NCBI GenBank assembly: GCA_963845185.1
Contig: CAWJRG010000009.1
Coordinates: forward strand, 320,001-384,000
Direction: 5' to 3'
DNA: 64,000 nt
DNA from: an uncultured bacterium
GTDB lineage: Bacteria; Oederibacteriota; PGYV01; CAWJRG01
Below, in pieces: positions 1-64,000 of the stretch. A program made the position numbers. How positions within the stretch are numbered: position 1 is the first letter of the stretch; every line of letters begins with the position of its first letter.

Positions 1-3000
1 AAAGGATACTTGGGTTTATCAAAGAGGAAGCAGACAAGCCGGCAAACCATACTTATCCCATAGGCAGGGGGCATAAAGTTTTTAAGGAAGCAATAATAAG
101 ATGGATGTTGAAAAGATTTGACGTGGATGTAAACGACAAGGAGGTCCTTGCTTTGATAGGCGCCAAGGACGGCATCACGCATCTGCCGCTTGCTTTTGTC
201 AATCCCGGGGATGTTGTCCTGATACCTGACCCTGGTTATCCGGGCTATATTGGCAGCGCCATAATTGCCGGAGCCACGCCTTACATAATGCCGCTGACAA
301 AAGAAAATAATTTTCTGCCTGATATGAAAAAAATTCCCGAGGATGTTTATAAAAAAACAAAAATAATGTTTTTGAACTACCCAAATAACCCTACTTCCGC
401 AATGGCAGGATTTGAGTTTTACGAGGAGGCGCTTTTTTACGCGCAAAAATATGATTTTATAATAGCGCAGGACGCGCCTTATTCCGAAATATATTTCAAG
501 GATCCGCCCATATCGATACTGGAAATAAAGGACGCGAAAAAGAACGTGATTGAGTATTTCTCGATGTCAAAAACCTATAATATGACAGGATGGAGAGTCG
601 GGTTCGCCGTAGGCGGCGAGGATATAATAAACGGGCTTGGCATTGTGAAAGAAAACATGGATTCAGGCACGGTTACCGCGCTTCAGATAGCATCTGCCCG
701 CGCGCTTGATAACTGCGACAAAGAGGCCAGCCAGATAAGGGCGCTTTACAAGAAACGCGCTGAAGTGTTTTATAAAGGCTTAAAATCAGCGGGTTTTGGC
801 GTGCTGGAGCCGGTCGCGACGCTTTATTTGTGGATGGCGATACCGGATAAATATACATCCATGGAATTTGCCTCCAAACTGCTGGATGAAGCAGGAGTTG
901 TGGTTACTCCGGGCATAGGCTTCGGCCAGTCAGGCGATAAATACATAAGGATAGCGCTGACAATCGAGGAAGAAGTGATTGAAAAAGCGCTGGACCGGCT
1001 GGGTAGATTCAAGGCGTAATCCCTTCTCCCTTTTTTACGGTAATACAGCGCAAACCAGCCAGGCAGGGCGAAAAATCCCCAAAAGCCGGCGGAAAAGAAA
1101 AATTTATGCGGGGTACATCATGAAGATATCAATTTCCAAAATCCGCTTTAATCCCGAAAACCCAAGGCATTTTATCAACCCTGACGGTATAGACAGCCTG
1201 GCCGCGTCCATGGAGGCAGATGGCCAGCTTGAATCCGTGAAAGTCCGCGAACTAACTCCCCAGGACACACCATCGCAGGGGTGCACCGCTATAGAGCCTG
1301 CCGAATACGAGCTTTTTGAGGGCGAGAGGCGCCTGCGGGCAGCAATGAAACTGGGCTGGACCGAGATAGAGGCTGAAGTATTTACGGGAAACAGGGAGGA
1401 CTTTTCCCTGAAGGGGTTCATGAACAATAATGGGGAGCCATACCACTGGCTGGACAAGTACAGGTATATAGCCGATTACATGGCAAAGCACCCCGACCTG
1501 ACACAAAGACAAATTGCAGACAAGCTTAACGTCGGCCTGACCATAGTTAATAACGCAAACAAAGTCATACCCCTGCTAAATGAGGGCGCAATGGCTGAAA
1601 TTGTTCGCATTGCGAACAAAACCACTGACTGGGAGGTGCCTGAAAGGTCAGTAGTTACGCTTTCCGGGCTGGCAAATGGCCAAAATAACGTTCTTGACCT
1701 TATGGAAAGGGCTCTGAAGGTGCTTATAGCCGGGAAAATGACTGAAAAACAGGTCAAAAAGCTGGCGGAGTGGGTAAAAGCAGGCAATTCACCGGAATCC
1801 TTCGGGGAGAGCGGCAAAACACACCCCTCGCCCCCTGAGGCGGGAGAGAGTCAGAGTGAGGGGGCTACTTCTGTAGCTGCAAATTCCGCTGAAGGCGACC
1901 AGGAATCCGGCCTAAACGGCGGGCGGCATGCCAAATTGTTGCAGGAGCTGAAGGATACAGGGTATTTTGAGATAAAAACGCCAGCCAAGAGCGGCCTTAA
2001 TATTATAATACAGGACGAGGACAGCGGCGCATTGGCAGCGCTTGGCGCGGCAGGGGCGATTTGGGCGCTGGGTCATCCGGATGGCGGCAAGCTGGACGAT
2101 AACCCGTATCTGGCAGACTTGCCCGGGCTCATAAAAGAAGTTCAAGGTTCAAGGCTCAATGGTCAACCAGCCTACGCCAACGCTATGGCGCACAAGCAGG
2201 CGGCTAAGGCAGCTCAAGAGGAAAGTAAAGTTCAAGGTTCAAAAGCTCAAGGGGTTCAAAGTGAGGGTATGGTAAGTAAATTCCAAATCCCAAACTCTGA
2301 AAATCCCAAATTGAATTCCCTTGACCTTGTTAAAAATATTTTGACAGCTGCCTCGGGCCACACGCCAAAGACTTTTTCCGGCAAAATATTGAAAACAGCG
2401 GCCATGTGGATGGCAAATAAGTTCAATAGCTCAACGGTCAAGGTTCAAGGTAATGAATTCCAAATTCCAAACTCTGAAAATCCCAAATTGAATAGTGCCA
2501 AATCCCAAATTCCGAATGGCTCTGCCGTAGTACGCAACACGATATTTGTAGTCATTGCTATTGCGATAGGTGCCTTTGCCCTGCTGCTTGGCCTGAAGAA
2601 GATAGCGCCTGGCGGACACTTCAGGGCTGCGTATTCTGCGGCGGCGCAAAAGCCAGGTGTTGTAACGCCTGTCACGTATAATAAGAGCAGGGAGTGGAAA
2701 CAGGCAATGCAGTGTTTTGCGGCAGCGGATTACGCAAGCGCGTTTATGTGGCTTGGAAAAACCGAGGAGAAATACGGCGACCAGGCGGATATTTACAGAT
2801 TAATGGGAGACTGCGAAAATAAACTGGGTAATTATCCGGATGCGGTAGAGCTCTATGAAAAGTATTCGAAAATGAACCCGGACGACGAGGAAATAAAAGC
2901 GAAGATTGAAGAGTTAAAGTCGACTGTGTCGCCGCCCGCCGGAATGGAAGAACCCACGCAGGAGCAGTAGAAGTGATGCTAAAAAAGCTTTGGACCATTT

Positions 3001-63000: not shown

Positions 63001-64000
63001 ACGGTGACGGAGCAGGAAACAGCTCCTTCGCCAAGATGGGCGCAGGTCGTGTTCTCAAAAGGCAAGCCTTTTTCCATGAACCCGGATACAGAAGATAATT
63101 TTGTTTATATGGATGAGGAAGTAAATTATTTAGTTAATAAATTCGGCAATGCATCCACGCCGAAAGGCATTAAGGGCTATGCGCTCGACAACGAACCTGA
63201 TATCTGGATGGGTACTCATCCGAGAATACATCCCAAAAAGCAGACGTGTGAGGAAATTATTTCAAAATCCGTCGCACTGGCAAAAGCAGTGAAAAACGTG
63301 GATCCTTACGCCGAAATATTCGGGCCTGCATCTTATGGGTTTAACGGGTTTAAAACTTTTCAGGATGCTCCTGACTGGTACAGTAAATACCAGGATAAAT
63401 ATGACTGGTTTTTATCCTATTATCTTGACATGATGAGAAAGGAATCAAAAAAAGCAGATAAAAGGCTGCTTGATGTTCTGGATGTTCACTGGTATCCTGA
63501 AGCACAGGGAGAAGGCAAAAGAATTGTAACCAACGGAGTTTTTCCCGGGATAAATGCCGCTGCAAGGGTACAGGCGCCAAGATCTTTATGGGACCCAACA
63601 TATACGGAAACAAGTTGGATATGCCAAACAGGCGGTTGCCCAATACAATTGATTCCACACCTGCAAAAATCCATAAAAAAATATTATCCGGGTACCAAAA
63701 TAGGCATCACCGAATATGATTACGGAGGCGGTGAACATATATCGGGCGGCATAGCCATGGCTGATGTACTAGGGATATTCGGCAAATACAGCATCTATTT
63801 TGCCACTTACTGGAATTCAGAAAGCGGCACATATACATCTGCTGCCTTTAAACTTTACAGGAACTATGACGGTAATTACGGGACATTCGGCGACACCAAG
63901 GTAAAATCAGAAACCGATGATGTAGCCGATATGCCTGTATATGCTTCGATAAATGGCAAGGATGACTCATCACTCCATGTTATCGTTATCAACAGGGATA

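Follow-up and report, generated by a model that had tools for sequence, protein, structure and literature searches.

Buchnera, a reduced endosymbiont, reportedly keeps the flagellar basal body, the hook, FlgK and FlgN without flagellin, FlgL, FliD or FliS, and it has lost motAB and its chemotaxis genes. Salmonella flgL or fliC mutants, which are non-motile laboratory strains, are another point of reference. The gene set described here, from an uncultured, cellulose-degrading bacterium, resembles that of Buchnera in what is kept of the hook-basal body, in FlgK and FlgN, and in the four absent filament components; it differs in retaining the stators, FliL, the FliM peptide that binds CheY and, in most lineages, the che genes, and in that it is found phylum-wide in free-living organisms with genomes of 2-5 Mb. 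Its predicted end state, a hook bearing a ring of FlgK, is that of the Salmonella mutants (junction 9go6/9u4r), yet here many species have it as their wild-type condition. Buchnera is named as a flagellin-less case in PMC7688988, which describes Lysobacter enzymogenes OH11 as missing quite a few assembly genes, including fliH and fliJ, with the degenerate set co-opted for toxin export. Like the present system, OH11 has no functional flagellin gene, and it retains and uses the export apparatus along with several genes of the hook-basal body (PMC7688988); unlike it, our set is complete up to FlgK, FliH, FliI and FliJ included. Compared with the Buchnera and Lysobacter remnants, the genome shares the absence of flagellin and the retention of export, but not the loss of motAB, chemotaxis or assembly genes.

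The genome under study (G000; G-numbers denote individual genomes) is 99.38% complete in 11 contigs and was examined within sets of 24 genomes for its order and 99 for its phylum; most of the relatives are metagenome bins, and some are only 61-89% complete. The window, the whole 64-kb stretch of DNA analysed (1..64000), corresponds to C9:320001-384000, so that a window coordinate equals the position on contig C9 minus 320000. An initial annotation had placed a filament-less flagellar system across C9:264273-398965. Its genes do flank the window on both sides, but none lies inside: Pfam searches of the 48 ORFs returned housekeeping, IS110, T9SS-cargo and glycoside-hydrolase families only. Window 1..64000 (unstranded) is a non-flagellar block separating two flagellar gene groups, with genes for pantothenate and fatty-acid synthesis, ETF, T9SS-tailed giant proteins, glycoside hydrolases and two IS110-family transposases (9759..10808, minus strand, and 43013..44047, plus strand; both DEDD_Tnp_IS110 and Transposase_20). 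The one Pfam match in the window with a 'flagellar' name, FlgD_ig at 27.2 bits, falls in a 114-aa ORF (44276..44620, plus strand) that also matches Por_Secre_tail (28.0 bits) and CHU_C; we rejected it as a flagellar gene and regard it as a fragment of a T9SS C-terminal sorting domain. Between the first gene group and the window there are housekeeping genes only.

The first group, identified by Pfam, NCBIfam, the ORF list and motif scans, occupies C9:264273-296320 on the plus strand. It opens with flgB, flgC, fliE, fliF, fliG, fliH, fliI, fliJ, fliK (802 aa; C9:270929-273337), flgD, a TIGR02530 gene and flgE (647 aa; C9:274353-276296). It continues through flbD, motA and motB (C9:276848-278515), fliL, fliM (C9:279028-280089), fliY, fliO, fliP, fliQ, fliR, flhB and flhA (C9:284711-286798), and closes with flhF, flhG, a PilZ gene, fliA (C9:289763-290527), fapA, a DUF2802 gene, fliK2 (877 aa; C9:293384-296017) and flhX (C9:296030-296320). 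The second group (C9:390524-398965, plus strand) comprises flgF, flgG, flgA, flgH, flgI, flgJ (the rod-binding part only), yvyF, a candidate flgM, flgN and flgK. As first annotated, this operon stops at flgK, beyond which lie an oppositely oriented ORF of 137 aa and an Nramp gene. The chemotaxis cluster lies on another contig, at about C5:524784-537399.

These genes supply a complete export gate and ATPase set (FlhA, FlhB, FliP, FliQ, FliR, FliH, FliI, FliJ; FHIPEP at 871 bits, with further Pfam matches to Bac_export_1, 2 and 3, FliP, FliH, the ATPase and FliJ). The rotor, switch and stator (FliF, FliG, FliM, FliN/Y, MotA, MotB) were all found, as were the rod, the L and P rings and the hook with its cap and ruler (FlgB, FlgC, FlgF, FlgG, FlgH, FlgI, FlgA, FlgE, FlgD, FliK). 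Pfam and NCBIfam thus confirm the annotated basal body, gate, motor, rod, rings and hook, together with FlgN and FlgK.

Filament components are absent from the same genome. Neither Flagellin_N (PF00669) nor Flagellin_C (PF00700) has a match at E<=10; FliD yields noise below the cut-off (FliD_C, E 0.3; FliD_N, E 0.8), and FliS a single 16-bit match (E 0.026) under its 26.7-bit cut-off. All ORFs of at least 40 aa were also searched (--max) with profiles of the relatives' FliC, FlgL, FliD, FliS and FliW, and no match was better than E 0.28; the lineage flagellin profile reached 0.36 and that of FlgL 0.28. FlgL would itself be expected to match PF00669. The reported lack of flagellin, FlgL, FliD and FliS therefore stands and extends to FliW. 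Rod-type N-termini occur in exactly six proteins, FlgB, FlgC, FlgF, FlgG, FlgE and FlgK.

The pattern is not peculiar to one genome. FlgK without flagellin occurs in 53 of the 99 phylum genomes, spanning at least 15 families and most of the families of the phylum. Within the order, FlgK_D1 is found in 22 of 24 genomes and flagellin in four (G012, G016, G017 and G018), and only these four carry an additional FlgK of 471-472 aa and two full-length FlhA proteins. The second cluster of G012 is a complete canonical system, in which motAB, flhA, fliA, flgK (467 aa), flgL, fliW and csrA are accompanied by three flagellins, fliD and fliS. Flagellin, FliS and a short FlgK co-occur in 12 phylum genomes, all with such a separate canonical system, and throughout this set filament genes were seen only alongside it. 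The FlhA of the G012 short-FlgK system shares about 50% identity with numerous proteins of Firmicutes and Chloroflexota, and just as much with that of another phylum member; no donor of the canonical system can be named. The counts support the initial annotation in its view that the flagellin-bearing relatives hold their filament genes in a second, complete cluster and that the system without them is maintained and distinct rather than decaying; its order-wide extent was drawn too narrowly.

Our leading explanation, held tentatively, is a maintained rotary organelle, a variant of the flagellum that ends at the FlgK hook tip. Its construction can be predicted if the gene set follows the order in which Salmonella-type flagella are known to be built. 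Assembly of the export gate, the MS and C rings, the rod, the L and P rings and a hook measured by FliK would proceed normally; the FliK/FlhB switch would open late export, whereupon FlgM would exit the cell and FliA would be freed; and FlgN would bring FlgK, which would displace the FlgD cap. In the absence of FlgL, flagellin, FliD and FliS, assembly would end at FlgK. The result would be a hook of about 0.1-0.2 micrometre that the stators rotate, topped by a ring of enlarged FlgK and, in this genome, turning under CheY control. Rotation of the stub may itself be the selected function, surface-linked rather than helical-propeller swimming, with adhesion, tethered rotation or work against the cell surface together with PorV/PorQ-like proteins as options. 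That the rotating stub serves something other than ordinary swimming is probable; a surface-linked function is speculation. One consideration pulls the other way: such a stub would be too short to propel a cell by known physics, and since stators and, in most lineages, chemotaxis are kept, a propeller fits them better than a stub does. The late-export set (the FliK switch, FlgM, FliA, FlgN and a second FlgN-like protein) likewise seems to exceed the needs of an 11-FlgK dead end.

The first alternative, which we consider unlikely while giving it real weight, is a flagellum for ordinary swimming whose propeller has been replaced, its filament built from an unrecognised non-flagellin: a FlgK homopolymer, an over-long FlgE hook or a protein without detectable kinship to the axial proteins. 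The stators, FliL, the FliM peptide that binds CheY and a che cluster of flagellar type are all kept, which would suit it, as would the arrangement of the late genes. FliA is present (FliA/WhiG TIGR02479, 216.6 bits against a cut-off of 189.6), and a candidate flgM (C9:396022-396318), assigned from gene position and from orthologues that match PF04316 while its own product has no Pfam match, is followed by flgN (C9:396336-396833) and flgK (C9:396866-398965). The three lie downstream of a sigma-28-like promoter motif (C9:395958-395983, motif scan), as expected of a filament gene. Further points in favour of a hidden filament are a second gene with weak similarity to flgN, which lies upstream of flgB in both G000 and G098 (pairwise E 2e-4), enlarged and lineage-conserved outer domains in both FlgK and FlgE, and a long FliK, 802 aa here and 1045-1079 aa in another family. 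Against this, a ruler of 800-1080 residues would, judging from Salmonella ruler data, set a hook length that stays far below a micrometre. The six axial-family proteins leave none to spare, the flagellar clusters contain no unexplained gene of filament size, and FlgD is the sole cap protein encoded; every known long flagellar polymer needs a cap.

Genome-wide searches for a late gene that might encode such a filament also argue against it. The motif TAAA-N14-16-CCGATA has 60 matches in G000, mostly inside genes; TAAAG-N14-16-NCGATA has 57, including 15 that are intergenic with a downstream gene, and 10 of these 15 are one repeated 27-base element. Credible targets are only fliK2-flhX, with a sigma-28-like site at C9:293315-293340 (motif scan), and flgM. 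The genes for ArgB, an MFS transporter, a UbiA-like prenyltransferase and others were rejected as hidden sigma-28 late genes, being ordinary genes; the best-looking site, upstream of a 533-aa T9SS-tailed protein, has no conserved equivalent ahead of any of the orthologues examined (20 loci scanned, about 11 with at least 270 bases upstream). A screen for flagellin-like composition (no Cys, few Trp, His or Pro, no hydrophobic stretch) returned 12 of 2115 proteins and no candidate flagellin. The one striking protein among them is 186 aa long and rich in Asn and Ala, is encoded beside glnB/amtB, and weakly matches DUF3347. Codon adaptation, scored against 22 ribosomal-cluster genes, is average for flgK (40th percentile) and flgE (68th percentile), which counts slightly against a bulk product; the genome-wide spread (median 0.69, 99th percentile 0.76) is too narrow for bulk production of FlgK or FlgE to be read from codon bias. 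For 9.9 kb of the hook-motor region, a search of sequencing runs listed one DNA run, at a 0.05 share of words, and no RNA run.

The initial annotation had also reported two FliK-like proteins. Both were found; they probably resolve into FliK and the FliK2 of a known accessory pair, FliK2-FlhX. The fliK2 product matches Flg_hook at 30.5 bits (cut-off 29.8), and the flhX product, a putative stand-alone paralogue of the FlhB C-terminus, matches the C-terminal part of Bac_export_2 at 77.9 bits and TIGR00789 at 110.6 bits, just under the 117.35 cut-off. With the DUF2802 gene just upstream, the layout resembles that of FliK2-FlhX and FlrD/FipA (DUF2802) in Pseudomonas, Vibrio and Helicobacter, with no notable difference, and the second FliK is probably an ordinary accessory. 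The predicted promoter of the pair is a sigma-28-type motif match; in P. putida, fliK2-flhX is FliA-dependent, according to bioRxiv 10.1101/2021.08.29.457346.

FlgK, the candidate terminus of the organelle, is a genuine member of its family. The annotated length (699 aa) was correct; closer comparison corrects the reading of a 'long' FlgK to an ordinary core with an enlarged outer region. The protein matches Flg_bb_rod (27.4 bits), FlgK_D1 (184.6 bits) and TIGR02492 (306 bits), and its C-terminus, a weak Flg_bbr_C match (E 0.0013), aligns to residues 468-552 of Salmonella FlgK. A predicted full-length model (pLDDT 85.8) superposes on 4ut1 with Z 26.6 and an rmsd of 1.8 over 333 residues, and on Salmonella FlgK in 9go6 with Z 26.5 over 448 residues. 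The modelled outer region is about 130 residues larger than that of Salmonella FlgK, a further difference from the flgL and fliC mutants; it includes a module predicted by fold match to resemble FliD D2-D3 and can be aligned across families at 23-35% identity. Alignments and fold matches led us to reject a fusion with FlgL or flagellin. Modelled alone, the insert reached a pLDDT of 61.6 with weak Foldseek matches only, and structure searches with the insert and full-length models found no carbohydrate-binding or adhesin fold. FlgE also has an enlarged outer domain, conserved within the lineage, and matches solved structures; at the sequence level FlgE and FlgK have no outer cassette in common.

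We regard it as improbable that the hook-basal body is solely an open-ended type III secretion conduit for which rotation is irrelevant. Salmonella hook tips without FlgL or FliD reportedly leak late substrates, and the absence of CheA from 9 of the 53 filament-less genomes would fit such a conduit. A precedent is OH11, which, according to PMC7688988, exports proteins through its remaining flagellar system without fliC; for Buchnera, named there as another case, such a conduit has been proposed. Export needs no stators, however, and MotB, with its plug and conserved Asp, is encoded inside the flagellar cluster in 48 of the 53. The MotB plug and TYAD motif are kept in G000 and three distant families, and the same genomes keep the FliM N-terminal peptide LSxxE(L/V/M)xALL. 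FliL, FliY and a PilZ protein are retained as well, and these features read as signs of a motor that works and is regulated. The L and P rings, the hook, FliK and FlgK likewise remain intact, and large secreted enzymes in the window bear T9SS-type C-terminal tails that point to another export route. Chemotaxis speaks less clearly. The annotated genes are confirmed in G000 as a full cluster of cheA (with P2 domain), cheW, cheB, cheR, cheC/X, cheD and cheY, but they are not universal: CheA is kept in 44 of the 53 filament-less genomes and also occurs in some non-flagellated relatives, so that chemotaxis is not firmly tied to the organelle and is a weaker argument than the stators.

The flagellar operon of the second group also encodes two PorV/PorQ-like proteins, absent from the initial annotation (C9:386647-388809 and 388824-390491, plus strand). 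The 555-aa protein matches NCBIfam NF033709 at 96.2 bits (cut-off 90) over profile positions 10-326 of 326, and the 720-aa protein at 61.8 bits against the same cut-off. The 555-aa protein resembles T9SS PorV/PorQ in family match, and both proteins do so in signal peptide and N-terminal barrel motif; they differ in their place inside a flagellar operon and in carrying additional domains of fn3 or Ig-like type. Across genomes, their orthologues follow the distribution of the filament-less system. A literature search not targeted at PorV found no published link between PorV and a flagellar operon; a GldM search gave no match, and control genomes likewise fell under the cut-off, so that this result is uninformative. 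Returning to the rotary stub, there is a slim chance that the motor has been turned to a new use in a surface device that dispenses with a filament, in which the short hook with its enlarged, conserved FlgK crown and FliD-like module works as a rotating adhesive or gear-like tip, partnering the PorV/PorQ-like proteins in gliding, pivoting or engaging an insoluble substrate such as cellulose, under chemotactic control where che genes are kept.

An artefact or recent loss, with filament genes unassembled or mis-binned or the system decaying, is very hard to credit even though most relatives are metagenome bins, some of them incomplete, and one, G026, has an FlgL-like frame, because the same absence recurs in all 53 genomes, including assemblies of one (G098), three (G019) and five contigs (G077 and G092), G000 itself is near-complete, the flagellar ORFs have their full length and their matches report no internal stops, and the clusters of several families run unbroken from flhA to flgK with no slot for flgL or fliC. 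The G026 frame, a Flagellin_N match that we rejected as a flagellin, is 5'-truncated, lies on a short contig and continues in frame into an epimerase; its kinship is with the FlgL of canonical systems, and it has no counterpart in the filament-less genomes and, used as a query, found no match in G000.

The literature on Goldbacteria/FCPU426 and on flagellin-less hook-basal bodies yielded no published description of this pattern, although supplements may list the genes; in the passages of Doud et al. 2019 (PMC7031533) consulted, Goldbacteria flagellar genes are mentioned in a figure legend only. Flagellin is taken as the defining flagellar product, and genome surveys usually score motility from basal-body genes; both habits are challenged by a candidate phylum of free-living anaerobes, publicly labelled Goldbacteria or FCPU426, that keeps the motor with its stators, the hook, its length control and the late-export checkpoint for a structure expected to end at FlgK. 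In these lineages the presence of flagellar genes does not predict swimming. The PorV-like outer-membrane proteins in the flagellar operon offer a testable accessory. Should the stub prove to be the completed organelle, it would be a natural rotary machine without a propeller and would raise the question of what rotation alone is used for; if a filament exists, its protein would lie outside the flagellin family, and that would be just as new.

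Pfam detects no flagellar protein among the 48 larger ORFs of the window; the flagellar finding concerns genes on both sides of it and, above all, genes that are missing genome-wide. Annotation of the flanks with Pfam and NCBIfam places the flagellar genes of the genome under study (G000) in two groups on contig C9. The first (C9:264273-296320) comprises flgB, flgC, fliE, fliF, fliG, fliH, fliI, fliJ, fliK (802 aa), flgD, the gene of a TIGR02530 protein, flgE (647 aa), flbD, motA, motB, fliL, fliM, fliY, fliO, fliP, fliQ, fliR, flhB, flhA, flhF, flhG, a PilZ protein gene, fliA, fapA, a DUF2802 gene, a gene for another protein with a FliK domain (877 aa) and one for a free-standing paralogue of the FlhB C-terminus. 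The second (C9:386647-398965) begins with two genes for PorV/PorQ-like outer-membrane proteins, followed by flgF, flgG, flgA, flgH, flgI, rod-binding flgJ, yvyF, a 98-aa FlgM candidate, flgN and flgK (699 aa). The flgF-to-flgK operon ends right after flgK, as the initial annotation stated; it is followed by an opposite-strand ORF of 137 aa and by the gene of an Nramp transporter.

The window encodes pantothenate and fatty-acid synthesis, ETF, TMEM260-like glycosyltransferases and two IS110 transposases by Pfam, and housekeeping genes (zapA, pheT, dapA, dapB and that of a release factor) likewise occupy the DNA between the two groups outside it. Flagellar genes are contiguous in phylum families f22 and f23, in contrast to the split arrangement of G000. 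Four transposase genes lie in or around the separating block, namely the IS110-family genes at window 9759-10808 (minus strand) and 43013-44047 (plus strand) and DDE_Tnp_1_4 genes at C9:316321-317484 and C9:384947-386278; one DDE copy is immediately upstream of the PorV-like pair. Pfam also identifies glycoside hydrolases and several very large T9SS-tailed proteins in the window. A run of very large secreted proteins at window 44816-63999 includes a 1781-aa protein and a 1647-aa protein with GH30-like and CIA30 domains, both carrying T9SS-type C-terminal sorting domains, a 1533-aa protein with GH9 and CelD_N domains, and a GH44 protein; their predicted domains fit a cellulose degrader whose enzymes are exported by a non-flagellar route. 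Two window genes each appear to be split into adjacent same-strand ORFs, possibly through frameshifts or as pseudogenes. One (16179-16985 and 17113-17487) encodes an outer-membrane efflux protein (OEP) and precedes a HlyD/MacB transporter; the other (27902-28651 and 28674-29486) encodes a Na+/H+ exchanger that includes a TrkA-C domain. Elsewhere in G000, an identical 27-base string, TAAAGATAGGGGCTAAAAAACGCGATA, occurs at at least 10 sites, 33-212 bases upstream of unrelated genes (for example C9:605708-605734, C10:569142-569168 and C11:126098-126124).

The assembly of G000 is 99.38% complete in 11 contigs. A six-frame search yields no Flagellin_N or Flagellin_C match at E<=10, a single noise match each for FliD_C and FliD_N (E 0.3 and 0.8, under cut-off), and one 16-bit FliS match against a cut-off of 26.7. 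Profiles of FliC, FlgL, FliD, FliS and FliW built from relatives, run with all filters off against every G000 ORF of at least 40 aa, reach a best E of 0.28. The N- and C-terminal rod families, used as queries, recover exactly six axial proteins, FlgB, FlgC, FlgF, FlgG, FlgE and FlgK. The reported lack of flagellin, FlgL, FliD and FliS in this genome is thereby confirmed.

Distribution was compiled by hand from per-genome tables. Among the 24 genomes of the order (PGYV01 in the initial annotation), FlgK_D1 occurs in 22, in agreement with the earlier count, and flagellin in four (G012, G016, G017 and G018). These four alone in the order carry an extra FlgK of 471-472 aa and two full-length FlhA proteins. 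The second cluster of G012 amounts to a full canonical system, with motAB, fliL, fliM, fliP, fliR, flhB, flhA, a sigma-54 activator, fliA, rod and ring genes, flgN, flgK (467 aa), flgL, fliW, csrA, three flagellins, fliD and fliS, which bears out the proposal that flagellin-bearing members possess a second complete cluster with its own FlhA and short FlgK. Across the 99 genomes of the phylum, FlgK_D1 is found in 66, FHIPEP in 69, MotB_plug in 73, Flagellin_N in 13 and FliS above cut-off in 12. Flagellin, FliS and a short FlgK occur together in 12 genomes, seven of which (families f16 and f17) have the canonical system as their sole flagellar system. FlgK without flagellin characterizes 53 of the 99, spread across most families, a count that shows breadth and not statistics, the relatives being non-independent. 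About 30 of the 99 genomes have neither kind of system. Complete FlgK frames of this filament-less set measure about 700-900 aa; 48 of the 53 genomes retain MotB and 44 retain CheA, and the set includes assemblies of 1, 3 and 5 contigs (G098, G019, G077, G092). The thirteenth Flagellin_N match, in G026, was rejected as a flagellin. It is a 5'-truncated frame (locus L019, from G026:C141, 142-1332, minus strand) in which a fragment of an NAD-epimerase is fused to a FlgL-like protein lacking the first ~33 profile positions and related to the FlgL of canonical systems. GC falls from ~0.70-0.74 to 0.61 across that end of the contig; either the frame is a relic of rearrangement or the contig is chimeric. 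In G069 (99% complete, 30 contigs), filament-less-type FlhA and MotB are present, but FlgK_D1 gives no match and the 555-aa PorV-like protein has no orthologue; this genome may have lost the flgF-flgK half of the system.

Other families carry the filament-less genes as a single run, which in G094 and G067 reads flhX, two PorV-like genes, flgF, flgG, flgA, flgH, flgI, flgJ, one small ORF, flgM, flgN and flgK, then fliK (1045-1079 aa), flgD, a small PF12611 protein (the TIGR02530 family of G000) and flgE. No flgL or flagellin slot is present anywhere in the clusters of these families. Residues 8-315 and 602-686 of G000 FlgK align to Salmonella FlgK, and a structural model (pLDDT 85.8, built from 29 sequences) matches solved FlgK structures with a Z of 26 (rmsd 1.8 A over 333 residues of 4ut1; 448 residues of 9go6). 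The unusual length claimed for FlgK holds, and alignment and model place the extra sequence in a larger outer region, about residues 316-601, alignable across four families at 23-35% identity. Within the model, residues 373-477 can be superposed on the head domains D2-D3 of FliD proteins of several species (5h5w: Z 10.2 and rmsd 2.3 A over 97 residues, at 16% identity). This fold also occurs in flagellin outer domains and phage sheaths, and the modeled likeness implies no function. FlgE is a genuine hook protein whose middle part is lineage-specific, and at sequence level no cassette is common to FlgE and FlgK in G000. Just upstream of flgB lies a small gene (C9:263685-264059; L033:11589-12056 in G098) whose G098 version is weakly FlgN-like (Pfam E 1.7e-5) and resembles that of G000 (pairwise E 2e-4); it may encode a second late-substrate chaperone without a known client.

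The motor appears equipped for torque and control. G000 has FliL, a FliY-type switch protein and a PilZ protein, and G000, G094, G098 and G067 all keep the MotB plug and RWLLTYAD(M/L)(L/I)TLL segment, whose transmembrane Asp we take to be the proton-binding residue, together with the FliM N-terminal LSxxE(L/V/M)xALL motif, presumably the CheY-P-binding peptide. A complete chemotaxis cluster on contig C5 encodes CheA with a P2 domain, CheW, CheB, CheR, two CheC/CheX proteins, CheD, CheY and an MCP. The CheA dimerisation domain is missing from nine of the 53 filament-less genomes (G024, G027, G028, G064, G065, G098, G022, G062, G081), which keep FlhA, FlgK or MotB and include all scored FlgK-bearing members of f11, f20 and f23 (the first six), whereas several non-flagellated f16/f17 members possess CheA (e.g. 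G042, G048, G049, G051, G053, G054, G056). Signs of a motor must therefore be read with caution. At least six genes for PilB/PilT/GspE-type ATPases (eight matches) are also present in G000, and type IV pili may thus be another output.

Both FliK-like proteins of the initial annotation are present, the second probably of a known kind: with its FlhB-like partner it would correspond to the FliK2-FlhX pair, and the preceding DUF2802 gene to FlrD/FipA, features of Pseudomonas, Vibrio and Helicobacter clusters found in the same arrangement in G000. A preprint on P. putida describes fliK2-flhX as FliA-dependent (bioRxiv 10.1101/2021.08.29.457346). In G000 a sigma-28-like site, TAAAG-N15-CCGATA, lies 44 bases upstream of fliK2, and TAAAG-N15-ACGATA lies 64 bases upstream of flgM and is conserved in G019, so that flgM-flgN-flgK looks like a late operon.

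The PorV/PorQ-like pair (C9:386647-390491), directly upstream of flgF, is a candidate new accessory of the filament-less system. Both proteins have a Sec signal and the N-terminal barrel motif of PorV/PorQ; the 555-aa protein scores 96.2 bits for NF033709 (NCBIfam cut-off 90) and has fn3 domains, and the 720-aa protein has a weaker NF033709 match and a FlgD_ig domain. With the 555-aa protein as the one query, full-length orthologues (E<=1e-58) were found in 64 of the 99 genomes and in 51 of the 53 filament-less FlgK-bearing ones, usually on the contig that carries flgK and roughly 8 kb from it. Only weak paralogues, and no orthologues, occur in the 28 genomes of f12-f17, where the filament-less system is absent or the canonical system stands alone. 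A separate 533-aa T9SS-tailed protein (C9:103379-104980) has orthologues in 20 of the 24 order genomes, several followed by a gene for a ~453-aa PorV-like paralogue (e.g. G013:C14:44414-47189, G019:C2:1160575-1163181; loci L041-L061), which suggests cargo-PorV gene pairs.

Given the established steps of flagellar assembly, these genes would build everything up to the hook; the export specificity switch would follow, FlgM would be exported, and FlgK would be placed on the hook tip, displacing the FlgD cap, with nothing encoded that could be added afterwards. To the best of our knowledge, every long axial polymer (rod, hook, filament) needs its own cap, and FlgD is the sole cap encoded in G000. 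We therefore rank a FlgK-tipped rotating hook first as the finished structure, a tentative choice at somewhat short of even odds. The chief difficulty for this reading lies in function, since so short a stub should be unable to propel a cell and chemotaxis is nonetheless kept in most lineages. An unrecognised filament, whether a polymer of FlgK, of FlgE or of an unrelated protein, accordingly remains a serious if unlikely rival. Axial-family counts, cluster content, a sigma-28 scan and a composition screen yield no candidate for it, and codon usage in G000 was uninformative. A role of the hook-basal body in export only, as proposed for Buchnera and demonstrated in Lysobacter OH11 (PMC7688988), is less probable still, because stators are dispensable for export and are nonetheless kept in 48 of the 53 genomes, a retention that argues for rotation as the selected function. 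With an absence this broad, and with near-closed genomes among those that show it, an assembly artefact or recent decay is very unlikely, and the view of a maintained system stands.

Flagellin-less flagellar gene sets are already known from Buchnera and Lysobacter. In contrast to those, the set described here is complete up to FlgK, retains the parts for torque and control, and is conserved over a phylum of free-living bacteria. Our literature search found no description of a hook-ending, filament-less system in this phylum; the main text of the one genome paper on the group, supplements aside, mentions flagellar genes solely in a figure legend (PMC7031533).
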